64,000 nucleotides of DNA from sequence record MN850622.1, one strand, 5' to 3'. Numbering within the stretch: position 1 is the stretch's first letter; each line of letters begins with the position of its first letter. The DNA comes from Escherichia phage mobillu. The position numbers and the translations under genes are program-made. The notes beneath the pieces are model-generated. The model was not told the origin of the DNA, ran no database searches, and worked only from the letters and a program-made list of their open reading frames with translations. This document shows, piece after piece, positions 1 to 42,833 of this stretch.

Positions 1-851
1 AATCAAAATCAAGTCTTGCTCGTCCACAAATTATTGATGCAATTTTAGATGCACTGAAATTCAGCACAGACACTTATTTTGTAAGTCCTGAAACTGTTCG
101 TCGTGATTTCACTAAAGAATTCTATACGAAAGTTATTGATCGTTGTGAAAGCATTCAACCATTGATTGATTCATTTGGTAAAATCACACATGTGAACTAC
201 ACTAAGATTGGACGTCTGAAGCCAATGCTGAAACAAGCTTTAGAACACCTTATTCGTTATCATAACCGTTCTCAGGGACAGTACTCTGTTATTCATGGTG
301 ACCCGAACTTCAGTAATACTATGATTACTGATAACGGCGAAGTCAAGTTTATCGACCCTCGTGGATATTTTGGCGAAACCAAGATTTACGGGCCAAAATT
401 GTATGATGAAGCTAAAGTGCTTTATGCTGTTTCAGGTTATGATGAATTCAATGCTAATCCGACCTGGGGACAGTTTACTATTGATGAAACAACTTGTAAT
501 GTGACTATTAACATCAATCCATTAGTTTACAAATATGGAAAGATGAGTTCGTTTAACGAGTATCATCATTTGGCTGTAGCAATTATCTGGATTGCATTAG
601 GTGGTTATTTCAAGAATAATCCACTTAAAGCGGTAGCCGCATATTATAAAGGTATGGAACTTCTGACTAAGCAATTACGTAACATGGGCCGTGTACTTCA
701 AGACGGCTCTATTAGTTATGACGTAGCAGAACCTGTAACGGCTACTCTGATTACAAAAAATCCTGGTAAATGGGTACTAACTGATAAAGAAACTGGTGTT
801 TCCTATCGTCCAATCGGTGGCGATATCACTCATCAATGGGAACGAATCTAA
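1..851 (+). CDS. protein-kinase-like (APH/choline-kinase fold) phosphotransferase, 5-prime truncated at window edge
   Basis: Reading frame open from nt 3 with no stop and no ATG before the window start; catalytic-loop-like VIHGDPNFSNTMI and FIDPRGYFG motifs; stop TAA 849-851. Confidence 0.55.
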   Translation, partial: SKSSLARPQIIDAILDALKFSTDTYFVSPETVRRDFTKEFYTKVIDRCESIQPLIDSFGKITHVNYTKIGRLKPMLKQALEHLIRYHNRSQGQYSVIHGDPNFSNTMITDNGEVKFIDPRGYFGETKIYGPKLYDEAKVLYAVSGYDEFNANPTWGQFTIDETTCNVTININPLVYKYGKMSSFNEYHHLAVAIIWIALGGYFKNNPLKAVAAYYKGMELLTKQLRNMGRVLQDGSISYDVAEPVTATLITKNPGKWVLTDKETGVSYRPIGGDITHQWERI

Positions 852-1237
852 TGCACCGTGTAGAAAACATGCTTAATCTTTGTTTTGATGTCGATGATTG
901 TATAACAGAGTGGAATAACAATCGTGATTACGTGAACTTCAAACCAGACGTCGAAATGGTGTCTGCCATTAATGCCCTGTATGATGCAGGGCATACCATA
1001 ACGCTTTACACTGCTCGCGGTATGAAGTCAGTAGGTCCTGGTCGTATAGCAATTGACATTCTCCCAAGTCTGATTCAGAACTTGGCAAACATTGGCTTGA
1101 AGTACCATAATTTGCTAACACATAAACCAGTATATGATTGGATTATCGACGACAAAGCTATGCGTCCTGACGAATTCAAAGCTCTTATGAATAAAGGCGA
1201 ATTCGAAACATTTAAATCATATAAACCAAATCTATAA
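851..1237 (+). CDS. small HAD-superfamily-like phosphatase (possible 5-prime(3-prime)-nucleotidase type)
   Basis: TAATG overlap with upstream stop; N-terminal FDVDDC (DxD) motif, TLYTARG, and C-terminal K...IIDDK resembling HAD motifs I-IV; alternative start 836. Confidence 0.5.
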   Translation: MHRVENMLNLCFDVDDCITEWNNNRDYVNFKPDVEMVSAINALYDAGHTITLYTARGMKSVGPGRIAIDILPSLIQNLANIGLKYHNLLTHKPVYDWIIDDKAMRPDEFKALMNKGEFETFKSYKPNL

Positions 1238-1294
1238 TAATTTAAGTAAGACCTGCAAAAACCATCGCATCAATTAACGTGAGATGCAAAAAAA

Positions 1295-2455
1295 ATGAAT
1301 ACTTTTAAAATCGGAACGAATTTTGATTTAGCTCTTCTTGATAAAATCGTAGAGCTCAATAAAACTTATCCTAATAGCTTGATAAACGAAGTATACGGCT
1401 CTACAAGAGAAATGGCTTTTGTAGCAGCCAGACCTGATTTTAGGCTTCCTGACGTTGACAAAAAGATGTTAGAAGATTACGTTAAACGTTGTAACGAATT
1501 AGGTATTTGCTTTAACTATACACTCAACACGATAAATCCTGGTTCAAAAAGAGAACTAGTTGAGTGGAAGAAGAAAGCTATTCAGGATTATGTTCAGTAT
1601 CTTTGGTCAATAGGCGTATGGCGTATTACTATCGCTAACCCTGTTGTTATGGAAATTGTTCGTGAAGTCAATAAAGACATTGAGATTGAAGTTTCAACAA
1701 TTCTACATGTCGATGCTGTAACTCAAATCAAATACTTGCATGACCAGTATAATATCAAAAAGGTCTGCTGTGGAATTCATAAGAACCGTTCAGTTTCTTT
1801 CCTGAAGCGTGCAGCAGAGTTTTGCAATAAGAACAATATAATATTTGAAGTTCTTGTAAATGAGTTCTGTTCTAATGCTGGTAAAGGGTATACAACACAT
1901 TGTAGCTATCGTGACTCTTGCTATATTTTCCATAGTACTGATGTTACAGCTGATGATGCTAAATCCTTAAACGGATATCCTATGCAGCACTGTATTAAAG
2001 CTCGTGATACAGACCCATTTAACTGGTTGAGAACTCGTTTTGTTCGTCCTCAAGATTTGAAACTTTATAATGATATTGGTATCACTCAATTCAAAGTTTC
2101 AGGACGTACAGGTAGCACAGACTACATTTTGAAAGTTCTTGAAGCATACGCTTCTGAAAAGTTTGAAGGTAATTTGTTAGAACTGTGGAAGCCTTTAGAG
2201 ACTATTTTCACTCTTGAAAATGAGACCGAGTTTTCACATACGGTAAATATTGAAACCTCTTTGTTAGATGGCTTTTTAGAAAAAAGGTGGTTCAGACATC
2301 CAGATTTCGATTGTGCTAATGAAATCTGCGGGACGACGTGTACATATTGTGAAAGATATTATAAACGTCAGTTATCTAAAAATGGGTTATCAGAAAATTC
2401 TATATCTATTATTGATATAACTAACTCTGATGACGCTTTGAGGTACCCAGAATGA
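1295..2455 (+). CDS. peptidase U32-family protein (RlhA/TrhP/UbiU-like putative Fe-S prephenate-dependent hydroxylase)
   Basis: 386 aa; N-terminal layout and FKVSGRTGSTDY segment resemble U32 KIEGR region; multiple Cys incl. C-terminal CxxxxCxxxCxxC; assignment from memory of family motifs. Confidence 0.5.
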   Translation: MNTFKIGTNFDLALLDKIVELNKTYPNSLINEVYGSTREMAFVAARPDFRLPDVDKKMLEDYVKRCNELGICFNYTLNTINPGSKRELVEWKKKAIQDYVQYLWSIGVWRITIANPVVMEIVREVNKDIEIEVSTILHVDAVTQIKYLHDQYNIKKVCCGIHKNRSVSFLKRAAEFCNKNNIIFEVLVNEFCSNAGKGYTTHCSYRDSCYIFHSTDVTADDAKSLNGYPMQHCIKARDTDPFNWLRTRFVRPQDLKLYNDIGITQFKVSGRTGSTDYILKVLEAYASEKFEGNLLELWKPLETIFTLENETEFSHTVNIETSLLDGFLEKRWFRHPDFDCANEICGTTCTYCERYYKRQLSKNGLSENSISIIDITNSDDALRYPE

Positions 2456-2691
2456 TTTCTAGAAAAACTTTTAACCACCAACTTAATGAAGAGATTTTGA
2501 CTATGAAAATTAACAGCAACGAACAAATTCTTAAAAAGGCCCTTATGGGCCTGTTTGAAACTAAAGCGGCTAAAGTGATTAAAGGACCTGTTCAATTGGA
2601 ATACTACGCTGATGCATTTCTTCATAGTGTTCTTGGAAGTATCGATGCTGAAGCTTTACGTTATATCAACATTGTCAAGAAATTCAAATAA
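2452..2691 (+). CDS. hypothetical protein
   Basis: ATGA start/stop overlap with upstream gene; 79 aa; no recognisable motif. Confidence 0.45.
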   Translation: MISRKTFNHQLNEEILTMKINSNEQILKKALMGLFETKAAKVIKGPVQLEYYADAFLHSVLGSIDAEALRYINIVKKFK

Positions 2692-2714
2692 GCTTTACGA
2701 ATTGAGTATATAAT
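2692..2714 (+). promoter_or_regulatory. putative middle promoter for gene 42 (MotA box GCTTTA + TATAAT)
   Basis: aGCTTTAcgaattgagtaTATAAT, box-to--10 gap 11 nt. Confidence 0.35.
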
Positions 2715-2733
2715 AAATTGTATTGAGGTAAAC

Positions 2734-3450
2734 ATGGGAAAACATAACACAATGAAATATATCAAAGCCGCAGATTTTCAAACCGCATTTAAAGCAGTCA
2801 ATCGTGAAATTTTAGAAAACCCGGAATTCGTAACTGATTCTCGTATTGGACGTTGTAATGAAATTGGGTCTATGACAGTAGTTGTTGACACTCCATCATC
2901 ATTCAAAATGACCGACCCACGTATTAACCGCATCTCTTATGAATACGCCGAAGATTTCTGGAAGTTTATGATTTCTGGTGGTACCAACGCAGAAGAAGCG
3001 TTTAAGGCATATCCTAATGTCGCTAAATTTATTTCTAAACCAAAATCAGATGTTTTGCCGGCGAACTTCAACACTTTCTACGGTCCTCGCATTGCGGCCC
3101 AATTACCAGCTCTTCTAAAAGAACTTAAAGAGAAGCCTAACTCCCGAAGAGTTGTGTTCCAAATTCTAGAAAGTTCTGATCAGGCTTTGCTTGATTCAGA
3201 CGAAACGCTTGAATATCCATGTACTGACTCAGTGACTTATTATATTCGTGATGGTAAGCTTTATACCCACTGTCATATGCGTTCTCAGAACTGTGCTGTT
3301 GTTATGCAGTTGGATTTTTATCTCCAAGGAAAATTACTTCATTATATCGCTAACGAATGTGGTGTAGAAGTTGGTGATTATACTCATACCATGGTAAGTG
3401 CCCATGTGTTTGAACGTGATTTTGATTATGTTAAAGGATTCCTTGACTAA
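2734..3450 (+). CDS. 42: dCMP hydroxymethylase (thymidylate-synthase superfamily), gene 42 homolog
   Basis: GAGGT RBS; SRR and YPCTD catalytic-Cys motif, MRSQN motif, Asp at position +31 from catalytic Cys (equivalent to T4 gp42 Asp179 / TS Asn177); syntenic with T4 gene 42 next to uvsX. Confidence 0.75.
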   Translation: MGKHNTMKYIKAADFQTAFKAVNREILENPEFVTDSRIGRCNEIGSMTVVVDTPSSFKMTDPRINRISYEYAEDFWKFMISGGTNAEEAFKAYPNVAKFISKPKSDVLPANFNTFYGPRIAAQLPALLKELKEKPNSRRVVFQILESSDQALLDSDETLEYPCTDSVTYYIRDGKLYTHCHMRSQNCAVVMQLDFYLQGKLLHYIANECGVEVGDYTHTMVSAHVFERDFDYVKGFLD

Positions 3451-4349
3451 TGGCTATTTTCCGCGTACCAATCTTGAGTATGCGGTCTTATGAAACTGGA
3501 CAGTATGCTATCCTTAAGGATGGCAACTTCCAACTTCATTTGCACCGTGCTAATCCAGGTGATGTGATTACATATCCACGTAATGCATCTGATATTAAAG
3601 AATGCGAACGTCTTTTCCCAGAATTTAAGTTTGTTCCATTATGGTATAAAGATAACGCGTATAACACTCGTAAATATTTCTGGTCTGAAAATGAATTTGT
3701 GGTTGATTCATTAATTGCTTATTATGATTGTGATTTTCTAATCACAGATATCACCGGATATGACGGTGCTTTTGATGTAGAATTCAATTTCAATATCACT
3801 GCAGACCCTAATAAACCACGTTTTTATATTGACGAATTCTTAAAAACCGACATGTTGTCGGTTAATCGTTCACTTCAAACTACTGTGTTGAACGAACGTC
3901 AAAAAGAAGTGCTGGTTAACGCAGGTGCAGATGGTAATAAGATTATCGTAACGCAGAAAGTTATACGTCCTTCCATCATGCAGCGTCTTGTAGGTGATTT
4001 GGCTCCTATTCATCTAGATGGTATTTTTCATCCATTTCGAATTAGCGACCCGTGCTATCGTTTTGAACAAGTGGTTGAATGTGCAATTCAATTAGGCCAA
4101 CCGCTTTATATAACCGATCCAAATAATAGCTTCGACAGAAATAAGTATCCTGAAGAAGCGCTGATTCGAATTTTTAAACCAACTAAAACTGAGTACTATC
4201 AAATTCTTAAAGGACGTCCGAAAATTCAATATTTCGAAAATCCTGAAGAAGTATTCCATCCAGGTCTTGGTGAGTTCATCTACTTTAATGCTTTAATTTC
4301 TTCGCCGTATAATATACCTAAATATGAAGATGTCGTAATCGAGGAATAA
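3450..4349 (+). CDS. hypothetical protein in beta-gt syntenic slot (possible transferase)
   Basis: TAATG coupling to gene 42; 299 aa; no recognisable similarity to T4 beta-glucosyltransferase by eye. Confidence 0.5.
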   Translation: MAIFRVPILSMRSYETGQYAILKDGNFQLHLHRANPGDVITYPRNASDIKECERLFPEFKFVPLWYKDNAYNTRKYFWSENEFVVDSLIAYYDCDFLITDITGYDGAFDVEFNFNITADPNKPRFYIDEFLKTDMLSVNRSLQTTVLNERQKEVLVNAGADGNKIIVTQKVIRPSIMQRLVGDLAPIHLDGIFHPFRISDPCYRFEQVVECAIQLGQPLYITDPNNSFDRNKYPEEALIRIFKPTKTEYYQILKGRPKIQYFENPEEVFHPGLGEFIYFNALISSPYNIPKYEDVVIEE

Positions 4350-4350
4350 A

Positions 4351-4899
4351 ATGGCTAAAATTATTTTAGTAGATGGCCCAGATAATGCTGGTAAAACAAC
4401 TTTCATTAATGACATAATGGAAATTAGTGAAAGATATGTAAAGATTGATTTCCCTAAACGAACAGTTGATGGGCGTTTCGATGTTAAGTCTCGAAATGAA
4501 GTTGGCTGCTTCGAAACGATGTTGAATTATTTAGACCCTACTAAGATTTATCTGTTAGACCGTGGATATATTAGTAACTGGGTTTATGGACGTATTCGAC
4601 AAGATGCGGACTCGGTTCTTGACGTTTATGAACAGGATTATGTTCGTCTTTGCCAAAACCATGATGTGTTCACAATTATTTTAACACGTAACGAAATGAC
4701 TGAAAGTTTTGAAGACGACCTTATTACTTTGTCTTCATTCGGTTTTAATACAGTCATTTCACATTTTGAAGAGTTTGCAATTCATAACAAAATCCAAACG
4801 TATCAATTACTTAATCATGATGGTGCTAACAAAGTTATAGGATTTAATGCAAGCGAACGTAATTATTTGATTACAGAAATTATCAAATGGGCTCGTTAA
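4351..4899 (+). CDS. P-loop nucleotide/nucleoside kinase-like protein (TMPK/dNK-like)
   Basis: Walker A VDGPDNAGKTT near N-terminus; LDRGYISNWVYG resembles DR(Y/H) motif of thymidylate/deoxynucleoside kinases. Confidence 0.6.
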   Translation: MAKIILVDGPDNAGKTTFINDIMEISERYVKIDFPKRTVDGRFDVKSRNEVGCFETMLNYLDPTKIYLLDRGYISNWVYGRIRQDADSVLDVYEQDYVRLCQNHDVFTIILTRNEMTESFEDDLITLSSFGFNTVISHFEEFAIHNKIQTYQLLNHDGANKVIGFNASERNYLITEIIKWAR

Positions 4900-4919
4900 G
4901 AGCCATTTAAAGTTTTAAA

Positions 4920-4944
4920 TGCTGTATAACCCTTAGTATATAAT
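4920..4944 (+). promoter_or_regulatory. putative middle promoter for uvsX (MotA-box-like TGCTGTA + TATAAT)
   Basis: aaaTGCTGTAtaacccttagtaTATAAT. Confidence 0.3.
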
Positions 4945-4997
4945 CATCTTATCTTTTAAACATGAGTAAAATATAATGATGCCTATGGAAAAATACA

Positions 4998-6170
4998 ATG
5001 TCTGATTTAAAATCTCGTTTGATTAAAGCTTCTACTTCTAAAATGACTGCAGACTTGACTAAGTCTAAGCTGTTTAATAATCGCGATGAAGTCCCTACTC
5101 GTATTCCAATGTTGAATATTGCACTAGGTGGTGCACTGAATGCCGGGTTGCAATCAGGCTTGACTATTTTTGCTGCTCCTTCTAAACACTTTAAAACGTT
5201 GTTTGGACTGACCATGGTTGCAGCATATATGAAGAAATATAAAGATGCAATCTGTTTGTTTTATGACTCAGAATTCGGTGCTTCGGAATCTTATTTTCGT
5301 TCAATGGGTGTTGATTTAGACCGTGTAGTTCATACTCCGATTCAATCGGTCGAACAACTTAAGGTTGATATGACTAATCAGCTTGACGCGATTGAACGCG
5401 GTGATAAAGTTATTATCTTTATTGACTCGATTGGTAATACTGCATCTAAGAAAGAAACCGAAGATGCATTGAACGAGAAAGTTGTAGGTGATATGTCTCG
5501 TGCTAAGGCACTTAAATCTCTGTTCCGCATTGTGACCCCGTATCTGACTATTAAAGATATTCCGTGTGTTGCAATTAACCATACAGCAATGGAAATCGGC
5601 GGATTGTATCCTAAAGAGATTATGGGCGGTGGTACAGGTATTCTTTATTCTGCCAACACGGTATTTTTTATCTCTAAACGTCAGGTTAAAGAAGGTACAG
5701 AATTGACCGGTTATGACTTCACGTTGAAAGCAGAAAAATCTCGCACAGTTAAAGAGAAATCTACTTTCCCGATCACGGTTAATTTTGATGGCGGTATTGA
5801 CCCATTCAGTGGCTTGTTAGAAATGGCAACTGAAATTGGTTTTGTAGTTAAGCCTAAAGCTGGTTGGTATGCTCGTGAATTCCTTGACGAAGAAACAGGT
5901 GAAATGATTCGTGAAGAAAAATCATGGCGTGCTAAAGCTACTGATTGTGTAGAATTCTGGGGACCTTTGTTTAAACACAAACCTTTCCGAGATGCAATTG
6001 AAACTAAATATAAACTAGGTGCTATCTCTTCTATTAAAGAAGTTGATGACGCTGTTAACGACCTTATTAATTGCAAAGCAACAACTAAAGTTCCGGTTAA
6101 AACTTCTGATGCTCCATCTGCAGCAGATATAGAAAACGACCTTGACGAAATGGAAGATTTCGATGAATAA
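4998..6170 (+). CDS. uvsX: UvsX RecA-like recombinase
   Basis: 390 aa; strong N-terminal and core similarity to T4 UvsX; synteny uvsX-40-41. Confidence 0.95.
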   Translation: MSDLKSRLIKASTSKMTADLTKSKLFNNRDEVPTRIPMLNIALGGALNAGLQSGLTIFAAPSKHFKTLFGLTMVAAYMKKYKDAICLFYDSEFGASESYFRSMGVDLDRVVHTPIQSVEQLKVDMTNQLDAIERGDKVIIFIDSIGNTASKKETEDALNEKVVGDMSRAKALKSLFRIVTPYLTIKDIPCVAINHTAMEIGGLYPKEIMGGGTGILYSANTVFFISKRQVKEGTELTGYDFTLKAEKSRTVKEKSTFPITVNFDGGIDPFSGLLEMATEIGFVVKPKAGWYAREFLDEETGEMIREEKSWRAKATDCVEFWGPLFKHKPFRDAIETKYKLGAISSIKEVDDAVNDLINCKATTKVPVKTSDAPSAADIENDLDEMEDFDE

Positions 6171-12677: not shown

Positions 12678-12765
12678 GATATCTCCTTAGTTACCTATTA
12701 TTTATTACGCTTTATAAAATTAATGTTAGAATTAACTCTCTTATACTGAATTGAAAGGAAAAATA

Positions 12766-13287
12766 ATGGCACACTTTAACGAATGTTCACAACTTATTTC
12801 TGGTGTTGATAAAGCAGAAGAAGCTTATTTTAATGCTCTGATTCACGAAGATAAAGACCCACTGCAGGTAATGCTTGATATGCAGAAATCTTTACAGGTT
12901 CGTCTGGCAAATGACAAGCCTGAACATAACAAACATCCTGATGAATTGGCCACTGCTGGCGATGTTGTTGATTGGCTGCGTAATCAGAAAGATTATATTG
13001 ATGATGAATTTCGTGAACTGCTGACTTCACTTGGTGGTATGTCCAACGGTGAAAAAGCTGCCAGCTCTGTGTGGAAGCCATGGAAAGCACAACATGCTGA
13101 ATATCGTAATCGTCGTATTGATGAACTGTCTCCTGAAGACCAGCTCGAAATTAAATTCGAAATGATTGATATTCTGCACTTCGTTCTGAACATGTTCCAA
13201 GGTCTGGGTCTTTCTGCCGAAGAAATCTTTAAACTGTATTATCTGAAGAATGCTGAAAACTTTGCTCGTCAAGACCGAGGTTATTAA
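12766..13287 (+). CDS. 56: gp56 dCTPase/dUTPase (MazG-like dCTP pyrophosphatase)
   Basis: 173 aa; MAHFNEC...DKDPLQVMLDMQ...EFRELLTSLG...ILHFVLNMF near-identical pattern to T4 gp56. Confidence 0.9.
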   Translation: MAHFNECSQLISGVDKAEEAYFNALIHEDKDPLQVMLDMQKSLQVRLANDKPEHNKHPDELATAGDVVDWLRNQKDYIDDEFRELLTSLGGMSNGEKAASSVWKPWKAQHAEYRNRRIDELSPEDQLEIKFEMIDILHFVLNMFQGLGLSAEEIFKLYYLKNAENFARQDRGY

Positions 13288-15493: not shown

Positions 15494-16075
15494 ATGACAT
15501 GTCAATCTGAACTTCAAGAACGTGAATACCTAACAAATCTGATTGATAGCAAATTCACCCACCAAGAACAAAACATTCTCTGGGCTTGCACCGATTCTAA
15601 GGAAGACCCGGATTTCCACTATGAATTAGACCATCTTGTTCGTAAGCATATGACTTCTACAGTACCAGTAGAACTCTACCGTGGTGTAACTCCAGAAGAA
15701 GTAGAACGTCTTTCACTTCTTTCTGTTGGTTGCCATTGGTCTCCTGGACGAGTAACATCGTTCACAACTGATTTCAGTACAGCTCGTCAATTCTCCGGGA
15801 GATGGGAATATCAGACGTACACTATTCTTAGTCTCAGGAATGCTCCATTCATTTTTGATTACTACCAAAACATGATTAACATTGTACTCGCCGGAAAGAA
15901 CCCTAAGCATGTTATGGAAGAAACGCGTGTTGACGTCCTAGATATGATTGAATCTGAACAAGAGTACATGGTCTCAGGTATCTCTAGATTTGAGATTGTG
16001 GAAATTGAAGACTTAGAATATGACCCTTTATCTCGATTATACAAAATCATTCATTTGAAAATGTTGAATTTTTAG
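15494..16075 (+). CDS. ADP-ribosyltransferase, ModA/ModB family (ModB position)
   Basis: 193 aa; R-S-E triad: ELYRG, FSTAR, SEQEY; tandem with paralog; synteny next to srd. Confidence 0.7.
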   Translation: MTCQSELQEREYLTNLIDSKFTHQEQNILWACTDSKEDPDFHYELDHLVRKHMTSTVPVELYRGVTPEEVERLSLLSVGCHWSPGRVTSFTTDFSTARQFSGRWEYQTYTILSLRNAPFIFDYYQNMINIVLAGKNPKHVMEETRVDVLDMIESEQEYMVSGISRFEIVEIEDLEYDPLSRLYKIIHLKMLNF

Positions 16076-16133: not shown

Positions 16134-16742
16134 ATGTTTATGCCGTATAACGAGTGTGAAATTGAAGAAATTGTTCGTCGTGCTCAAAACCCCGAATATC
16201 AAGATGTATTGCAGTACGAAATTGATAGTCAATTCAGCGACATTGAACAAAGTGTACTGTGGCAGTGTATGGAAAACAAGCCAGACTGTATTCAACAGGA
16301 GTTAAGTTCAATCGTTCGTAGAAATTGGACGTCTTCTGTTCCTGAGACAATGTATCGTGGAATCTCTAAGAAAACTATGGCCGCACTCGATGATAAAGGC
16401 ATTGGTAGTATTATTAAATTTGACAGAGTAATGAGCTTCAGCCCAGTGTTCGGTGTAGCACGTAACTTTGCTTCGTATAATTTTTACGGAACATTTAATA
16501 TGTTCTGCATCAAAGATGCACCATTTGCTTTCAACTTCCGTGAACATATGCTTAACATGATTCTGGCTGCGCCATCTTGTGAGTTCAATGGAGCTTTCCC
16601 TGAAGCGACAAGACGGTCTAATGCTAGACTTATATCCGACGAATGTGAATTTATGCTCCCTATAGGGACTACACTGCGTGTAGATTCTATTATTCAAGAT
16701 GGACGTTATACAATCTGGAATCTGTCTATTGTCAGTTACTGA
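16134..16742 (+). CDS. ADP-ribosyltransferase, ModA/ModB family (ModA position)
   Basis: 202 aa; MYRGIS, FSPVFGVAR, ECEF motifs; paralog of upstream gene. Confidence 0.7.
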   Translation: MFMPYNECEIEEIVRRAQNPEYQDVLQYEIDSQFSDIEQSVLWQCMENKPDCIQQELSSIVRRNWTSSVPETMYRGISKKTMAALDDKGIGSIIKFDRVMSFSPVFGVARNFASYNFYGTFNMFCIKDAPFAFNFREHMLNMILAAPSCEFNGAFPEATRRSNARLISDECEFMLPIGTTLRVDSIIQDGRYTIWNLSIVSY

Positions 16743-25269: not shown

Positions 25270-26370
25270 ATGAAAGTTATGTTTATCCCATCTCGCGCAG
25301 TCCCATTTAACCCAGAACGTGTACAAGGTGGTCTTGAAGCAGTACATTTAAATGTGTTGAAATATCTTGTGTCCATCGGTGCTGATATTGATTATATCGG
25401 CTTTGATAATGACACGTTTGGTGACTGGAAGGTTAATCATCATCCTGTTGGTCATCTGACTAAATTCAGTCTAGGTATGAGTTATACTATGGCTCGTAAG
25501 ATTGTTGAACTAGCCGGCATTAATGAGTACGATTTCGTTGTTACAATGGAACCGACCAAACTAACCGTTCAGGCAATTAAAGACGCAGGTCTCTCTAAAG
25601 TTCATAAGAATTTTATGGCAACACCATTTGAACCAGTATCTCGTGGCATTGTTCAAATTTGGGACCAGACTATTCAAATTCATAAGAACGGTGGTAAGAG
25701 TTATGCTCCTACTAAAGCCTTCCGTGAATTTGAACGCAAATATTGTTATATGACTTCAGGTCTGACTGACAAAATTGATTATGATTATTGGCGAGCAAAT
25801 CCGTTGTTTGAAGCCGAAGATTATCCGGTTATTTGTTTGAATGATAAACCTGAAGTTCTTCCGGCGACTGATCTGATTATTAGTGCACAACGTTATGACA
25901 CTAAAATGCGTCGTACTGATGTTGCTCTTGAAGCGATTAAAGCACTAGGCGAAAATGGTGCAGGATACTGTCCTAGTAAATGGGCACCACCAGCTAAATA
26001 TCCTGTTATTATTGATGCTCCACACAGTGAAATCATGGAACGTCTTAAAATGGCTAAAGCACTTATTAATACGTGTCCTGACACAGGTACGGTAGAGAAT
26101 AGTTCTATTGAAGCCATCTCTAAAGGTGTCCCTGTAATCCAGTTAGTTTTTAAGGATTATCCTCATGCGACATTCGAATACGACCCGGATACTGTGCGTG
26201 TAGAAATTGATTCCTCTACTCCTAAGAAAGAAGTAGTTGCGCTTTACACAAAAGCTGTATTAGAATTCACTGACACATACGAAGCTCGAGTTAAACGTGC
26301 TGAAGCAGTATGGAAGAAATATAATCGAGATGCAGTTGTTGCGATGTGGGATAAAATCTTCACAGCGTAA
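25270..26370 (+). CDS. GT-B fold glycosyltransferase-like protein (candidate DNA hmC glycosyltransferase)
   Basis: 366 aa; N-terminal MKVMFIPSR...GGLE resembling GT4/T4 alpha-gt N-terminus; inserted between 39 and rIIA. Confidence 0.45.
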   Translation: MKVMFIPSRAVPFNPERVQGGLEAVHLNVLKYLVSIGADIDYIGFDNDTFGDWKVNHHPVGHLTKFSLGMSYTMARKIVELAGINEYDFVVTMEPTKLTVQAIKDAGLSKVHKNFMATPFEPVSRGIVQIWDQTIQIHKNGGKSYAPTKAFREFERKYCYMTSGLTDKIDYDYWRANPLFEAEDYPVICLNDKPEVLPATDLIISAQRYDTKMRRTDVALEAIKALGENGAGYCPSKWAPPAKYPVIIDAPHSEIMERLKMAKALINTCPDTGTVENSSIEAISKGVPVIQLVFKDYPHATFEYDPDTVRVEIDSSTPKKEVVALYTKAVLEFTDTYEARVKRAEAVWKKYNRDAVVAMWDKIFTA

Positions 26371-36592: not shown

Positions 36593-37252
36593 TTATTTAG
36601 CCCTTCCTAGTATTCGGACCGCTTGGTTGCATATAGCCGCTAAGCGATCTTCCTCAAGTATATTATTCCCCTTATACCAATACATCGTCACAGTTCCAGC
36701 ATAGATGTTATCCAAATTAAAGTATGGACAACTATACATATAAGAAAGTTCGGCAGTCTTAGATTTTGTAGGCAAAAATGCAAATTCTGATTTAGATGAG
36801 AAATGACGGCCACTTAAATGAATTATATATTCATTGGCCGTTTTATCCACCGGGAATCCGCCAAGGGACTTTTCAGAAATTGTGCTAGGTAGTTTGCCTT
36901 CATAAGCTATAAGGTCGACAAAATAATTTAAGTTTTTAGGTCTGAAAGAATACACAGCACTAAAATCTGCACCAGATGAGATATGAACTATTTGCAGTTG
37001 TTCTAGAGCCGCAGATTCAAAACGTAAAGCTCGTTCTTTTTGGATTATTTCAGTATAAGTATCATACTTAGCTCTTACATAATAATCCAGCAAAATACTT
37101 CCTTTGTACCATATTAGTGCCATTAGGAACAAAAGAATAATTACCGCTACTCGGGACATTAAAACCTTTCCAGTAGCGTTATCTTTGAAAATACGATCTA
37201 GCAACCCAAATAGAATATCACTAAGCGAAAATGACACTTTTGGTGTTGCCAT
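36593..37252 (-). CDS. t: holin T
   Basis: 219 aa; SFSLSDILFGLLDRIFKDNATGKV...MYSCPYFNLDNIYAG matches T4 holin; AAGGAGG RBS and late promoter upstream. Confidence 0.9.
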   Translation of the reverse strand: MATPKVSFSLSDILFGLLDRIFKDNATGKVLMSRVAVIILLFLMALIWYKGSILLDYYVRAKYDTYTEIIQKERALRFESAALEQLQIVHISSGADFSAVYSFRPKNLNYFVDLIAYEGKLPSTISEKSLGGFPVDKTANEYIIHLSGRHFSSKSEFAFLPTKSKTAELSYMYSCPYFNLDNIYAGTVTMYWYKGNNILEEDRLAAICNQAVRILGRAK

Positions 37253-37261
37253 AATACCTCC

Positions 37262-37813
37262 TTACTTAAAGATATTTATAATTCGTTTAACAAGTGATTT
37301 GCTTTCAAGGTCAGGGAATTTAGGGAATTCGCCGCCAAGATGTTCATGTTTTTCTAAAAGGGCAAAGAATTTTTTGAGCTCTTTAAATTTTCGTTTTTCT
37401 TCTCTATTAGCAACCTCTGCATCAATAAGAGAACTTAAAACACTGAATAATTTATAGAGTTCATGAATTTTCTTATCACGTTGAACTACCCGCTTATACG
37501 CTTCATCTTCCTTCCACCCGTCGTCAGTCCAAAGGTCAAATTCACCTGGTTCTTCTGTAGTGACATTTTGAAGAGCACCTGGAGTGTCAATAACAATTTT
37601 TTGCTTATCATAAGTCCATACTGTTTTTCCGCGATGGTCTTCAACATATACCCATTCTTGCTCGCGTTCATCAAATATAACAGCATAGCCTTCTTTAGGG
37701 TCTAAAGGTTTTTTTGGTGTCGAATGAGCCGGAAATCCTACGCCTTTTAATGGTTTATAATTTTCTTCTTTGTAAAATTCTTTAGTGTCAAAATAATAGT
37801 GATAGAGTTTCAT
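37262..37813 (-). CDS. 38: gp38 tail-fibre assembly chaperone (Tfa-like)
   Basis: 183 aa; MKLYHYYFDTKEFYKEENYKP, EDHRGKTVW Tfa signature; downstream of gene 37. Confidence 0.85.
   Translation of the reverse strand: MKLYHYYFDTKEFYKEENYKPLKGVGFPAHSTPKKPLDPKEGYAVIFDEREQEWVYVEDHRGKTVWTYDKQKIVIDTPGALQNVTTEEPGEFDLWTDDGWKEDEAYKRVVQRDKKIHELYKLFSVLSSLIDAEVANREEKRKFKELKKFFALLEKHEHLGGEFPKFPDLESKSLVKRIINIFK
37273..37280 (-). promoter_or_regulatory. late promoter (TATAAATA) for holin t
   Basis: Reverse-complement TATAAATA, then AAGGAGG and ATG of t. Confidence 0.6.
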
Positions 37814-37820
37814 ATTATAA

Positions 37821-37838
37821 AAAGGGACCGAAGTCCCT
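37821..37838 (-). terminator. UUCG hairpin between genes 37 and 38 (terminator and split-RBS element)
   Basis: On - strand: TAAGGAG-aagggaCTTCGgtccctt-tttataat-ATG(38). Confidence 0.55.
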
Positions 37839-37843
37839 TCTCC

Positions 37844-40800
37844 TTATGCTAAACGAACGATATAGTTAAAAGCAACGTTTTTAACTGTGTTTTCTGTATT
37901 TCCTGTGGCATTTACAGTTATTGTATGTCCATGGGAACCAATTGCAACAGTATGAGAATGAGCACCAATACCTACCGAATGGGTATGAGCACCAATACCC
38001 ACAGTATGAGCATGGTTACCAGTAGCGCTAGTAGTTCCTGACCAACTATGAGTGTGGGCACCGTCTGAAGAAGTTTTGGCTATATTCGACCCTGCAGTAG
38101 CACCGTTCACGGTTCCAGTGAATTTAGCGTTGGCGTTTGCACCTACACTATTATATCCGTCATAGAATATGTTATTGGGTATGCCGGCTTGTATCTGAGG
38201 ACCTGAACGCGCGTGTTGGTGCGCACCAGCGGAACTAGTATTACCACTCACTGTATGGTTATGGTTACCAGTGGTATTACTGGTCTTAGTACCATAATCA
38301 AAGCTTGAAGTCGTTTTGCTACCGTAATCAAAACTAGAAGTGGTCTTAGTACCCAAATCTGTGCTTGATGCACTTGCACTATGGCTATGTGACTTAACAC
38401 CGTCTGCTTCTGTACTCAATACAGCACGCCCAGATGGTTTACCCTTGATAGTTTGACCACGCATATCAGGCAGAGCGCCGGAAGGATACACCGCAGCTAA
38501 CTTAGGATACAAGTCAGCATCAAATGTTTGACCTTCCATTATGGCATAACCTTCAGGAGGTGTATCAGTAGGCCAAGGAATCGGAGCACCAATAGGATAA
38601 CTTGAGACAATATCCGTCTTAAGGTTATTTATTGTGGTATTCAAGTTAGCAAAATTACCAGTGCCGCCAGTGATGTTACCATCAGTACCGAATTGAGCAT
38701 TACCGACTTTAAGAGGTTTAGCTATATCAACCGTATCAGAGTTTAATGCAATACCATGGGAGTAGGTGTAACTGTGCATACGAACGATGTTACCGCCATC
38801 GCCAATACCTAAATACCATTTCGGAACATCTGCTTTACGTCCTTGAATGAAGTTAGAAGACTCTTGTGTTGGAGCATTTATTCTAATAGCATCTGATGCC
38901 ATATTTACTGTTATTCGTTGACCAGCCGTAGTTCCAGCCGCTTCTACTTTAAATCTACCGCCGCCGATATCTACATCATGATCCATGGAAACTTTACCAT
39001 TACTTAATGTAATATAGAATGGACGTAAATTAGAAATACCACCTGATTCACCAGCATTCTGCGGAGTTGGAATAATATAAAACTTATCTTCAGAACGACG
39101 GAAAATAGCACCATATTCAGCATCGTAAATACGGAAAGCATCAGCAGTCCCGCCAATTTTAACCTGTCCGGTAATTGAGGCACCACCTTGAACAAACAAT
39201 CCATTATTCATTGTAACGTTGCCAACTAGAGTGCTTAATCCGTTAACTCTAAGACTTCCGTCGGTTATTAAGCTTCCTCTAGCATTAACCTGTCCATTGA
39301 ACTGAGTTACAACAGGGCCTGTAGTTTCAGAACCGGTCGGAGCTACGCGTTGAGAATAGAAATAATAACCTTGGCCATCAGAAACCTCAAATACGGTTTC
39401 TCGAGCTTTATCACCAGTAGCATTAAATGAGTTACCCCATGCTTTCACGGTCACATAACTTTTGTTCTGACCTGCACGAGTACCGCCTTCCCACATTATT
39501 TGCTTAGTGCCATCAATACCTGAAGCTGCTTTAAAAACTAGAGAAGCATTAGTTCCATCACCATTAAAATATAATCCGTTATTAAGTTTTAACGTTTGAA
39601 CAGAAGCGATGGTACCATCAGCACGCAAATTTAGCGAATTTGAACCAGTTTTAATATCTAAAATGCCGGGCTCAACAAGAAGTCCATCGCCCATACTAAC
39701 GGACATACGACCTGTACCACGGAAATAGTGATACATCTTAGCATTGCTGCTATATCCGATATGAGTCTGTCCATCGCCGTTATTATTACCATCAACATCG
39801 GTACGCGCAGTAAACATTGCTTGGTTATTATTTGGGAAATCCCAAGTAGAACCTGAATCTCGGCTATAACCAACCATCAATTTCTTGGTGCTGTTAATAC
39901 CATTGTTCAAAATGGTAGCCGAAGAAATACCGTTGGCCATTAAATCGATAACGCCGTCGCGAACCCATTTAATACCTGTATCGTTATCACCAATGGCAAT
40001 ACCTTTACCAAACGAAACCAATGGATAACGTCCTTGGTCACCAACATCAGCAAGACCTATACCTATCGAATTAGCAACAGACATACGCCCATCTGTGGTA
40101 TAAGACCATTGATAAACTTCGGCATTACGTCCCGTCCAATACGAAATATTCTGTGGTTTACCTGAACGAGCATCAGCAACTTCATGGAAAATAGCAGAAG
40201 AAACATGTCCGCGGAATTTACGAAGGTAGTTTATACCATTAGTATCCAAATCCGTTTCGGTTGGAGTATACTGCCAAGTCGGTAATGAAACTAAATCATA
40301 TGCAGTATCAATATTAGTGTCCCAAGATTTAGTGCTCACATTGATGTTTTTGGTAATAACTTTAGGACCAATTAAAGAACCAGCTTTAGTTTCAATATTA
40401 CTTTGAGTAACTAAATATCCATTAGATACTAATAAACTTCCGGAATCAACTTGAAAATTACCGTTTCGATTAAAAGTCCAGTATTTTGAAGTCCCGGTTT
40501 CATCAATATAATGGAATTTAAAACTACCTTCGTTTACTAATGTACCAGCAGAAAAAGTTCCATCTTTATAGCGTTGTTTAATCAGTGGATGGTATTCTGA
40601 AACAGAAGTAGTTGAACTTAAATCTGTAAAGATAGGGGCTTTATTCGAATGTTGGTTAGCCCAAGCGCCATTTCCAGTGGTTTTAGGTAAAAATTCAATG
40701 TATTTTCCTGCATAAACAAACTGATTTCCATTGAGATTATACGTGCCGTTTTGTAAATAATCACCAGTTTGAGTTACATTACCGTTAATATCCCCGCCCT

Positions 40801-40960
40801 TAGCAAAGCCTAGGCTAATAATATTACCGAGGTCATCTTTGGTAAAAAGAGTTCGATCTTTTAAGTTTATCGCTAATTCGCCTTCGGCTAATTGTGCTGC
40901 AGTAGGATTAACTCCTGCTACTTTGCTTCTTTTAAATTGTATCTGTTTTAATGTAGCCAT
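37844..40960 (-). CDS. 37: gp37 long tail fibre distal subunit (receptor-binding)
   Basis: 1038 aa; N-terminus [13 protein letters not shown] and C-terminal His-box region ([24 protein letters not shown]...NYIVRLA) match T4 gp37. Confidence 0.95.
38294..38353 (-). repeat. tandem in-frame 30-nt repeat inside gene 37 (receptor-binding region)
   Basis: Encodes [10 protein letters not shown] / [10 protein letters not shown] twice, with synonymous nucleotide differences. Confidence 0.6.
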
Positions 40961-40968
40961 AAGTCCTC

Positions 40969-41634
40969 TTAATAATAGCCGAAATCTTGAACAGAATCTT
41001 TAATTACAATCTGGTCGAAACGAGGAACATGATTAGCCTCAGACGCCGGATTCTGTGAGAAAAAGTTTGGTGCTGTTAAAGTACCAGTCATGGTATCGCC
41101 TTTACGCAATACACGGGAATTTGCGTTATCCGTAACAATATTTATTCTTCCATCAACATAATCTTTTCTTGTGAGATCATTTGCTGCAACCGGAGCAGTC
41201 ATATCGCTTCTTACTTGACCAGCTGCCGACACAACGCCTTTTGTATTAATATCACCATTACGTGTATTGATTACTACAGTTCTACCAGCTGTTCCTTGTG
41301 ATGATTTAAAACCAATACCGTACCATGAAACAATATCAATATTTGCTGTAACAAAAGTAGCTGCATCACCGTTACCTGGATAAACACCACATGGGTTTGT
41401 ATTGTTTATAGCATATGGTATTTGCACACCACTGTTAAATGTTACCTTTGAAGCGTAAGTACCACCGTTTGCTTTAGAAACGAAATCGTTATCAGCAGCT
41501 TGTGGCTTATTATATTCCGAATAGAGTTTAAACGTTTTATACAGGACGTCATCACCTGCTGGCATTAAAGGGAAATTACCTTGATGCCATATAACGGCAC
41601 CACCAGTTGTACTACCAGCTTTTAAATCGGCCAT
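40969..41634 (-). CDS. 36: gp36 long tail fibre hinge protein
   Basis: 221 aa from ATG 41634 ([21 protein letters not shown], late promoter upstream); track TTG start 41670 lies in promoter. Confidence 0.85.
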
Positions 41635-41659
41635 AGTTGTCTCCTTATATGTATACCCA

Positions 41660-41667
41660 TATTTATA
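41660..41667 (-). promoter_or_regulatory. late promoter (TATAAATA) for gene 36
   Basis: Reverse-complement TATAAATA between gp35 terminator hairpin and AAGGAG-ATG of gene 36. Confidence 0.6.
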
Positions 41668-41692
41668 CAAAAATGGGAGACCGAAGTCTCCC
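41668..41692 (-). terminator. intrinsic terminator after gene 35
   Basis: On - strand: gggagaCTTCGgtctccc + ATTTTTG. Confidence 0.65.
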
Positions 41693-41697
41693 TAAAT

Positions 41698-42825
41698 TTA
41701 TTCTGATGCTTCTTTAAATTCTTGCCCAAATACCTTACCAGTATCAGTTGAAGATTGAGTAGGTAATGTCATTATGTCTGGAGCACTTAAAGATTCTGAA
41801 ACATAATTTACACGAATACCATTTATACCAAACTCAGCAGGTTTTGAAACGCTTCCATTACATGATACTTCAGTGAATATAACGTTTCTTAATCCACCTT
41901 GCCCGACTGGAGCTGTACGATAACAATAAATCGTGAACCCGTCAGCACCAGCAGGAATTTCTATGTAGTCTTCATATATCTTCCATTCACCTGCAACCCC
42001 ATCAAAGTTTATATCCTTAAATGAAATAGGTGAAGTAGAAGGAGATTTAAAGAAACGAATAGAAAGTCGTGTCGTCCCTTGTGCTAACAAATCAGCATCG
42101 GCCATTAGTTGGAATTTCATATAAAGGAAATCTCCAGGCTTCAATTTATACCCAGCGAGAGGTGTAATAATGGACGTTGTAGGCATCCTTTTAATTTCAT
42201 TATTAGTACCTCCAACAGCAGATAAAAATGTGTCTGTCGATTCGTACGTACGACTAGGGAAGCCGGTAGCACCAATATCATCGATCGTGTCGTACACAAC
42301 ATCAAGTGGTGTACTATAGTCGGTTGAAGTTTTCTTATTACTATACTTAATATGTTCTAGTGCTATAGCATTCTTACCAGAAATATAAAATGCCGAATAA
42401 GAAATGTCCACTATATTTAAAACTTGTTGAGCTAATGGAATAGCAGAACTTCCGGCTTTATTAAACCATGTAAGAACTTCTGGCGGAAAGTTTGTTTTAG
42501 CGTTAGTAACAAGAGCAAATATAAAATTTGAAGAATATGTGTCCATGAAAGTAACAAATGCACTTGACGTGGCGTCGTTTTCAGTAGAGAAATTATATGT
42601 CTTAGATTCAACTACTGCACCCGTTGTAGGATTTATTACACGAACGTTTAATCCAACGGAAAAAACCTGGGACCCAAGTGGATTATCCTGGAACTTAATA
42701 TAAGCAGGAGATGTTGATAGCGGGCAAGAGCCCGCTATGCTTAATTTAAATCGTACTGAATTGCTTTCCGATAAAAATGGCGTTTGGACGTATCCTTGTC
42801 CAAACTTAGCCATAAATTTTTCCAT
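41698..42825 (-). CDS. 35: gp35 long tail fibre hinge connector
   Basis: 375 aa; MEKFMA...LSESNSVR, C-terminal PAEFGINGIRVNY match T4 gp35. Confidence 0.85.
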   Translation of the reverse strand: MEKFMAKFGQGYVQTPFLSESNSVRFKLSIAGSCPLSTSPAYIKFQDNPLGSQVFSVGLNVRVINPTTGAVVESKTYNFSTENDATSSAFVTFMDTYSSNFIFALVTNAKTNFPPEVLTWFNKAGSSAIPLAQQVLNIVDISYSAFYISGKNAIALEHIKYSNKKTSTDYSTPLDVVYDTIDDIGATGFPSRTYESTDTFLSAVGGTNNEIKRMPTTSIITPLAGYKLKPGDFLYMKFQLMADADLLAQGTTRLSIRFFKSPSTSPISFKDINFDGVAGEWKIYEDYIEIPAGADGFTIYCYRTAPVGQGGLRNVIFTEVSCNGSVSKPAEFGINGIRVNYVSESLSAPDIMTLPTQSSTDTGKVFGQEFKEASE

Positions 42826-42833
42826 AATACCTC

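Follow-up and report, generated by a model that had tools for sequence, protein, structure and literature searches.

The 64,000-nucleotide stretch of Escherichia phage mobillu DNA analyzed here (MN850622.1; hereafter the window, whose coordinates are used throughout) encodes, near its left end, a U32-family protein that probably serves as a hydroxylase feeding the modification of phage DNA. This protein, gp50, belongs to the U32 family by both sequence and predicted fold and retains the residues on which characterized family members depend. In addition, genes of its type are associated with those encoding DNA glycosyltransferases, chorismate mutase (CM) and DAHP synthase. It may draw on prephenate and may be of use when oxygen is lacking, in parallel with gp48, the oxygen-dependent 5-hydroxy-dCMP synthase encoded in the same cluster. 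For the substrate, dCMP is tentatively proposed. An earlier note, prepared from the letters of the DNA alone, had already read the protein as a putative pyrimidine hydroxylase. The family and fold, the catalytic residues and the association with CM, DAHP synthase and glycosyltransferase genes speak for that reading, whereas what the note said of the neighboring gene, of its adjacency and of the system being undescribed had to be revised. The gene in question is as follows.

1295..2455, + strand: gp50 (RB69ORF050c homologue), predicted U32-family Fe-S protein; ATG start, 386 aa; key residues E190, C192, C203, C209, C233, K267/G270/R271 and C340/C345/C349/C352

Family, fold and conserved residues of gp50

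gp50 is identical to RB69ORF050c at 385 of 386 residues, and positions 1-5000 of the window share 98.6-99% DNA identity with RB69-type Mosigvirus genomes, with gene order being the same. A profile search matched PF01136 (Peptidase_U32) to residues 94-286 of gp50 with a score of 42.2 bits (E 7.3e-11), above the gathering cut-off of 22.4 bits. An AlphaFold2 model based on 43 homologues (mean pLDDT 90.8) was shown in a fold search to present a TIM barrel like that of the solved U32 protein Mk0906 (5d88). As such, the assignment of gp50 to the U32 family in the earlier note is borne out by both approaches. When solved structures were searched by sequence using the gp50 profile, the only match was spurious.

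Comparison of the gp50 profile with the four Escherichia coli U32 paralogues revealed RlhA to be the best match (E 1.5e-5), followed by TrhP (E 3e-3; hhalign probability 10%), UbiU (1e-2) and UbiV (8e-2). The UbiU equivalog NF047963 (NCBIfam) scored 18.5 bits against gp50, relative to a cut-off of 440. Nor does gp50 present the domain layout of RlhA, being 386 aa long and offering no DUF3656 match (Pfam), or that of TrhP, given that no Pfam domain beyond U32 was found. Judging from these comparisons, gp50 is outside the RlhA, TrhP and UbiU subfamilies, is devoid of their extra domains and is a member of a largely phage-borne subfamily of its own. In a library clustered at 50% identity, this subfamily comprises 114 representatives at E<=1e-30 and 719 at E<=1e-10.

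The KIEGR-like segment that had been pointed out in gp50 is indeed present. FKVSGRTGSTDY, corresponding to residues 266-277, was profile-aligned with FKIEGRYKDMSY of RlhA, such that FKVSGR of gp50 lies opposite FKIEGR of RlhA, with K267 and R271 being invariant in 122 aligned family sequences. Profile alignment likewise paired E161, C169 and C176 of RlhA with E190, C203 and C209 of gp50. In RlhA, these three residues, as well as C-terminal Cys residues, are needed for 5-hydroxycytidine (ho5C) formation (PMC5727448), while the residues at the equivalent positions of TrhP, namely, E162, C170 and C177, are essential (PMC6599085). C192, C203 and C233 of gp50 are invariant across 121 representatives sharing 27-53% identity, with position 209 being occupied by Cys in 76 and by His in 45 of the 122 aligned sequences. 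The C-terminal Cys cluster is also as the earlier note described, reading C340-x4-C345-x3-C349-x2-C352. These four residues are invariant in the 43 homologues and are found in 113-115 of 122 diverse family representatives; no homology between this cluster and the C-terminal Cys region of RlhA was detected. Overall, such a Cys pattern would allow for a [4Fe-4S] site within the barrel, along with another metal site at the C-terminal end.

RlhA (YdcP), the 23S rRNA 5-hydroxycytidine-2501 synthase, thus resembles gp50 in combining a U32 domain, the essential Glu/Cys/Cys and extra Cys residues at the C-terminus, and it catalyzes cytosine C5-hydroxylation, the very chemistry proposed for gp50. At the same time, RlhA is a protein of 653 aa that includes DUF3656 and binds pre-50S particles, whereas gp50 presents a different Cys spacing, is virus-encoded within a DNA-glycosylation cluster and is proposed to act on a deoxynucleotide or DNA. 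A second parallel is offered by TrhP/TrhO, which generate 5-hydroxyuridine (ho5U) in tRNA, and by UbiU-UbiV/UbiI-H-F, which act in ubiquinone synthesis, where an O2-independent U32 protein is paired with an O2-dependent enzyme that generates the same product. Unlike gp50, these systems belong to cells and have tRNA or a quinone as their substrate. Moreover, TrhP includes a C-terminal domain, while UbiU/V form a heterodimer and work with UbiT; no such partner was seen beside gp50, where only the 79-aa gp49 is found.

Genomic associations of gp50-type genes

A protein search revealed many gp50 homologues in metagenomes, these being some 360 aa in length and sharing 45-58% identity with gp50, while a scan of IMG/VR yielded 41 further U32 loci. 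When the U32 proteins were grouped at 90% identity, 28 clusters emerged, 25 of which are not from Straboviridae, with neighbors being counted within 10 kb. Several of these 25 clusters are found on contigs of 127-466 kb that encode DnaE-type polymerases. A gene encoding a glycosyltransferase similar to Aat1, the putative first DNA arabinosyltransferase of the RB69-type cluster, was present in 18 of the 25, often abutting or overlapping the U32 gene, whereas API and AfhE-like arabinose-activation genes were seen in approximately nine. Seven loci (L021, L022, L039, L043, L044, L050 and L061) combine U32 and glycosyltransferase genes without arabinose genes. In L021 and L044, a gene encoding a TAGT-family DNA glycosyltransferase comes directly after the U32 gene and overlaps its stop codon. 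A gp48-type thymidylate-synthase homologue was encoded within +/-10 kb of U32 in none of the 25 clusters (HMM, E<=10). The presence of U32 and a glycosyltransferase without a gp48 homologue suggests that in these phages, U32 holds the place of the RB69 hydroxylase. Other U32 loci are flanked by genes encoding dCMP deaminase, thymidylate kinase, UDG, dUTPase, NT5C, deoxynucleoside kinase or nucleoside deoxyribosyltransferase, neighbors that point to a substrate at the deoxynucleotide level.

In Kanagawavirus, Winklervirus, Marfavirus, Mosugukvirus, Tegunavirus and Bragavirus, a CM_2 chorismate mutase gene lies between the U32 and gp48 genes. Such a gene is thus found in at least six other Straboviridae genera, with scores of 36-45 bits, as compared to a Pfam cut-off of 27. 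The CM gene was identified in 56 phage records and, among the matches listed, is found in the locus encoding U32 and the thymidylate-synthase homologue. The phage CM (type II) genes often overlap their neighbors by 4 nt, which suggests translational coupling. The AroQ active-site residues are invariant in the phage CMs of U32 loci and solved chorismate mutase structures are recovered with the phage CM profile (1ybz, E 3e-17); judged by these residues, the enzyme is catalytically intact. The product of chorismate mutase is prephenate. This compound has been shown to donate the oxygen used by UbiU/UbiV (PMC10990095) and is genetically required by TrhP (PMC6599085), as it is by RlhA, which also depends on Fe-S biogenesis.

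Outside Straboviridae, a shikimate-pathway gene adjoins that encoding U32 in 7 of the 25 clusters. The arrangements seen are listed below.

L020, L037: DAHP synthase gene adjoining U32 (NCBIfam 237 bits, vs. 63 for KDO8P synthase)
L047, L049, L058: DAHP synthase-CM_2 fusion gene adjoining U32
L051 and L055 (L053-L060 group): chorismate mutase (CM_2) gene adjoining U32

Assignment of the DAHP_synth_1 neighbor as a KDO8P synthase was ruled out by the NCBIfam scores and by the fusions to CM_2. Taken as genomic association, the recurrence of CM and DAHP synthase genes points, if indirectly, to gp50 being dependent on prephenate.

Several of the loci from uncultivated phages merit description in their own right. 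L021 (8474-16179) and L044 (9010-15057) contain genes encoding a kinase, an Aat1-like glycosyltransferase, U32 and a TAGT-family glycosyltransferase, together with a second TAGT-like gene, with L021 also carrying a UDP-galactopyranose mutase gene. Such gene content suggests hexofuranosylated hydroxypyrimidine DNA that would be generated without a thymidylate-synthase-type hydroxylase. L007 (8001-14360) encodes two U32 paralogues, respectively 49% and 22% identical to gp50, that flank genes for a 5'-deoxynucleotidase, an NMN transporter, a deoxynucleoside kinase, a radical SAM/SPASM protein and a nucleoside deoxyribosyltransferase. The same contig also encodes a dockerin/GH43 protein. L007 may correspond to an island for nucleoside modification, either cellular or of a prophage. 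Radical SAM/SPASM proteins are repeatedly found in the vicinity of gp50-type U32 proteins, being encoded not only in L007 but also in L022 (7972-9000) and in L006 (1-1454), where the gene adjoins those encoding a weakly GT-B-like (QTMAN_N) protein and a thymidylate kinase. Lastly, in L046 (8689-9951), a viral contig, a gene for an IS605 OrfB/TnpB protein (Cas12f-like TNB domain) is inserted between the AfhE-like and U32 genes.

The arabinosyl-5-hydroxycytosine cluster and a proposed role for gp50

RB69 DNA contains mono- and di-arabinosylated 5-hydroxycytosine (5hoC), rather than arabinosyl-hydroxymethylcytosine (Lee et al., NAR 2026, PMC13326640), a modification for which a pyrimidine C5-hydroxylase would be fitting. 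As in the arabinosyl-5-hydroxycytosine pathway of RB69, DLP3, HY126 and Bas46, the window carries the corresponding cluster, here with gp50 included. Indeed, the window is co-linear with the RB69-type cluster (gp55, gp52:53, gp51, gp50, gp49, gp48, gp46:47 and gp45, between the DNA polymerase gene and uvsX), with gp55 and the N-terminal part of gp52:53 falling to the left of the window and uvsX following gp45. The open reading frames (ORFs) of the cluster, together with two distant ORFs linked to the same pathway, are listed below.

1..851, + strand: C-terminal (kinase) part of gp52:53, AfhE-like arabinose-5-phosphate kinase/UDP-arabinose pyrophosphorylase; phrog_4098 positions 335-559 of 559, weak kinase-family Pfam match
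836..1237, + strand: gp51, HAD-type phosphatase, AfhF-like (arabinose-1,5-bisphosphate to arabinose-1-phosphate); TIGR01689, phrog_1238; role from PMC13326640
2452..2691, + strand: gp49 ("protein X"), 79 aa; phrog_8601; 4-nt overlap with the U32 stop codon
2734..3450, + strand: gp48, thymidylate-synthase-superfamily 5-hydroxy-dCMP synthase; 99% identical to RB69 gp48; PF00303
3450..4349, + strand: gp46:47 (Aat1), putative first DNA arabinosyltransferase acting on 5-hydroxycytosine, 299 aa; phrog_3891; PMC13326640 Table 1
4351..4899, + strand: gp45, thymidylate-kinase-like nucleotide kinase; phrog_761; PMC13326640 Table 1
12751..13287, + strand: gp56-like dCTPase (NTP pyrophosphohydrolase), supplying dCMP and removing dCTP; phrog_173
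25270..26370, + strand: ORF of 366 aa, ORF003c-like (putative second arabinosyltransferase); phrog_8302; between the genes for the topoisomerase II large subunit and rIIA

The last of these ORFs matches RB69 ORF003c, which comprises 366 residues (PMC6024577), in position and length, and is a candidate for this assignment. The gp52:53 gene is cut by the left edge of the window, although a full-length coding sequence is found in phage Bas46. The presence of this single sequence in Bas46 and of a single intact gp46:47 frame in the window agrees with the published view that the splits seen in both genes in the RB69 GenBank record are sequencing errors. The list also corrects the earlier note on two counts. 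The U32 gene does not lie immediately upstream of that encoding the thymidylate-synthase homologue, given that the 79-aa gp49 ORF separates the two, nor is that homologue a dCMP hydroxymethylase, being 99% identical to RB69 gp48, a protein shown to be a 5-hydroxy-dCMP synthase (PMC13326640). Of the proteins of the module, gp50 varies least among Straboviridae genera, with a mean identity of 85%, as compared to 80% for gp48, 64% for Aat1 and 60% for AfhE.

gp49 contains no Cys and has no family assignment. The overlap of its gene with the U32 stop codon raises the possibility of translational coupling. The protein is homologous (43.6% identity) to the product of a small ORF found between the U32 and CM genes of Yersinia phage TG1 and is kept in Mosigvirus-, Tegunavirus- and Mosugukvirus-type phages at 45-57% identity, with the pattern DAFxHS...G.I..E..R.IN being invariant. 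That gp49 could be a diverged chorismate mutase was considered and rejected, as there was no CM_2 match at E<=10 and as hhalign comparison with the phage CM profile, using both the single sequence and profiles, gave a probability of <1%. In terms of gene order, then, gp49 holds the place of the chorismate mutase of the sister genera but, as far as such comparisons reveal, is not homologous to it. It is conceivable that gp49 assists the U32 enzyme as an accessory factor.

Upstream of gp48, inspection by eye of positions 2693-2720 revealed a GCTTTA box followed some 12 nt later by TATAAT, reminiscent of a T4 MotA-dependent middle promoter. If real, this promoter could allow gp48 to be transcribed apart from gp50-gp49. 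In a promoter scan around the gp50 gene, matches were no commoner than expected by chance.

In the published pathway, the conversion of ribulose-5-phosphate to arabinose-5-phosphate, arabinose-1,5-bisphosphate, arabinose-1-phosphate and finally UDP-arabinofuranose (UDP-Araf) is assigned to gp55, gp52:53 and gp51, while gp48 makes 5-hydroxy-dCMP, with the oxygen coming from O2, as reflected in 18O2 labeling, by way of a loosely bound flavin, FMN binding having been reported (PMC13326640). Hydroxylation is there ascribed to gp48 alone, with gp50 being left unassigned or guessed to be a reductase. Specifically, gp50 appears solely in Table 1 of that study, as "Sugar or heterocycle reductase," and is not discussed, and although the discussion mentions two RNA pyrimidine-hydroxylation pathways, these are not linked to gp50 (PMC13326640). 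Earlier, a weak U32 match of gp50 was tabulated in 2006 (PMC1524935) and the protein was included among putative modification genes in 2021, with "homologs among peptidases" (PMC8056088). The statement in the earlier note that this is not a described system accordingly does not hold for the gene, tabulated in 2006, 2021 and 2026; as for the role, no proposal or test of gp50 as a hydroxylase was found in the accessible literature. With coverage of 2025-2026 being incomplete, such novelty is conditional.

Because gp48 already hydroxylates cytosine in this locus, U32 is best considered as adding another route to 5hoC that runs in parallel, not as its only source. In the pathway as envisaged here, the dCTPase (12751-13287) would generate dCMP, from which gp48 would make 5-hydroxy-dCMP when O2 is present. 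Kinases and the polymerase would then put 5hoC into DNA, with Aat1 and the ORF003c-like transferase (25270-26370) adding arabinose, all steps drawn from the literature. When O2 is absent, and perhaps always, gp50 would oxidize the pyrimidine ring via its Fe-S center(s), moving the C4 hydroxyl of prephenate to C5 and releasing phenylpyruvate and CO2, as proposed for UbiU/V. The product would be 5-hydroxy-deoxycytidylate, most likely formed from dCMP and possibly from cytosine in DNA. In hosts that are facultative anaerobes, the presence of gp50 beside gp48 would allow for fully modified DNA without oxygen. The phage of the window would rely on host PheA/TyrA for prephenate, while the sister genera encode a chorismate mutase of their own.

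A precedent of sorts is offered by the CmoA/CmoX carboxymethylcytosine system of Synechococcus phage S-B43 (PMC12783734), in which bacterial tRNA-modification enzymes borrowed by a phage consume prephenate and hypermodify DNA cytosine. There, however, a S-adenosylmethionine carboxylase and a transferase give rise to a different product, with neither U32 nor chorismate mutase being involved. No CmoA/CmoX homologue was seen among the cluster genes of the window in terms of family profile matches.

Distribution, alternative readings and further observations

U32 was found in 221 phage records, in each case with at least 80% identity to gp50 and in no case from an Acinetobacter phage; among the matches listed, the hosts are Enterobacterales or Shewanella. 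Aat1, by comparison, was found in 348 phage records, 57 of which are from Acinetobacter. In Acinetobacter phage DLP3 and E. coli Dhakavirus JS98, neither U32 nor CM was found, although the arabinose genes, gp48 and Aat1 are present, and DLP3 makes tri-arabinosyl-5hoC (PMC13326640). Because both genes are lacking from these two phages, the U32-CM pair can be considered as an insertion, separable from the rest, that lies between the genes for the phosphatase and gp48. Phages of Acinetobacter, a strict aerobe, thus have the pathway without U32. RB69 itself encodes the anaerobic ribonucleotide reductase NrdD/NrdG; NrdD was found in 2913 phage records, with Acinetobacter not being among the ten commonest names, although this is a weak proxy for anaerobic replication.

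Several points weigh against gp50 being a hydroxylase that supplies DNA modification. Support for the role is comparative throughout. Up to 2024, in vitro hydroxylation had not been demonstrated for any U32 protein (PMC10990095). In aerobic E. coli, moreover, gp48 alone suffices for the appearance of 5-hydroxy-deoxycytidine (5hodC) (PMC13326640). The spacing C192-x10-C203-x5-C209-x23-C233 in gp50 differs from the canonical U32 CX6CX15CX3-4C, although four [4Fe-4S] ligands nonetheless appear plausible. A tblastn search with seven phage CMs found none in the 64-kb window, such that for a Mosigvirus genome lacking chorismate mutase, the link to prephenate is indirect. Likewise, in a Klebsiella phage Marfa-type genome (L024, 10001-11918), U32 is followed directly by the gp48 homologue, with no CM in between. 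As another Marfavirus (F48) does encode CM, this gene seems to have been lost more than once. Some 70 records of phages of enteric hosts, JS98 among them, include Aat1 without U32, meaning that phages can do without U32 in at least some conditions. The absence of gp48 from the uncultivated phages refers to the +/-10 kb around U32, and the contrast between phages of aerobes and anaerobes involves few independent lineages.

Of the other roles that can be envisaged for gp50, hydroxylation of cytosine in DNA after replication, topping up the 5-hydroxycytosine content, is the closest to that preferred here but is nonetheless unlikely. RlhA and TrhP, the characterized U32 enzymes of nucleic acids, act on polynucleotides, RlhA is the closest E. 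coli paralogue by profile and, the U32 gene of both L021 and L044 overlaps one of the TAGT family, members of which act on DNA. Yet, at 386 aa, as compared to 653 for RlhA and 453 for TrhP, gp50 is without RNA- or ribosome-binding extensions, the RB69 pathway is pre-replicative, relying on a dCTPase and dNMP kinases, and thymidylate-kinase-like and dCMP-deaminase genes flank U32 in several phages. It is more doubtful still that gp50 is a reductase, epimerase or similar enzyme on the path to the UDP-arabinose donor, as implied by the annotation of its counterpart in BASEL phage Bas46 as a "putative enzyme involved in UDP-arabinose biosynthesis" and by the reductase label in Table 1 of PMC13326640. 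Although the gene sits between that of the phosphatase and the rest of the cluster, homologues are often encoded alongside API and AfhE-like proteins and the TIM barrel is common to many sugar enzymes, gp55, gp52:53 and gp51 together account for every step to UDP-Araf. Furthermore, DLP3 generates its tri-arabinosylated base, and JS98 likewise carries the pathway, without U32, the seven loci lacking arabinose genes still place U32 beside glycosyltransferases and a sugar role leaves the link to chorismate mutase and DAHP synthase unexplained.

The remaining two alternatives take gp50 out of DNA modification altogether. Hydroxylation of host or phage RNA (e.g., 23S rRNA C2501 or tRNA U34) so as to tune translation would be in line with RlhA and TrhP being the only U32 proteins tied to nucleic-acid hydroxylation and with gp50 retaining their essential residues. 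Still, U32 is encoded in operon-like DNA-modification clusters of many unrelated phages, tightly linked to DNA glycosyltransferases, gp50 is devoid of RNA-binding extension domains and E. coli already contains both RlhA and TrhP, rendering this role highly improbable. Finally, that gp50 is a true peptidase ("collagenase-like protease") is scarcely credible. While this is the name given in most database records and reflects the historical name of PF01136, no catalytic peptidase mechanism is known for the family (PMC5727448), the invariant residues are the Cys, Glu and Arg of a hydroxylase-type motif and the surrounding genes speak of nucleotide, sugar and shikimate metabolism, not proteolysis.

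Returning to gp50 as a hydroxylase serving DNA modification, a broader proposal can be offered, one to which we assign a little less than an even chance. Here, gp50-type U32 proteins would represent the ancestral form of pyrimidine C5-hydroxylase in viral DNA hypermodification and the sole such enzyme of many uncultivated phages, acting on deoxynucleotides with prephenate as oxygen donor, with phage CM and DAHP synthase pulling host shikimate flux toward prephenate. Were this so, it would correspond to the first virus-encoded hydroxylation system to rely on an organic oxygen donor and to the first case of a U32 enzyme working on a small, soluble nucleotide. The main proposal, that of gp50 as an O2-independent hydroxylase, would itself carry prephenate-dependent hydroxylation beyond RNA and quinones, to DNA precursors, and beyond cells, to viruses. 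It would also explain how phages lacking ordinary cytosine in their DNA can replicate in anoxic habitats, such as the gut, a question that arises because the only known 5-hydroxy-dCMP synthase needs O2. In practical terms, the "peptidase" and "reductase" annotations would be corrected and a soluble enzyme acting on dCMP would make for a much easier first in vitro reconstitution of a U32 hydroxylase, something that, according to PMC10990095, had not been achieved. The association with CM and DAHP synthase reveals a new type of phage auxiliary metabolic gene, and the combination of U32, CM/DAHP synthase and an Aat1-like glycosyltransferase could serve as a marker set for finding glycosylated hydroxypyrimidine DNA in uncultivated phages.

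Elsewhere in the window, positions 15494-16075 and 16134-16742 correspond to tandem paralogous ORFs with matches to the RNA polymerase ADP-ribosylase family (ModA/ModB-like). On the minus strand, the region spanning 36593-46712 contains ORFs of 219, 1038, 233, 375 and 1292 aa, which, from their sizes, could be the long tail-fibre genes 38-34. Here, GC skew also reverses and the GC content reaches a local peak (0.42 at 38-40 kb).

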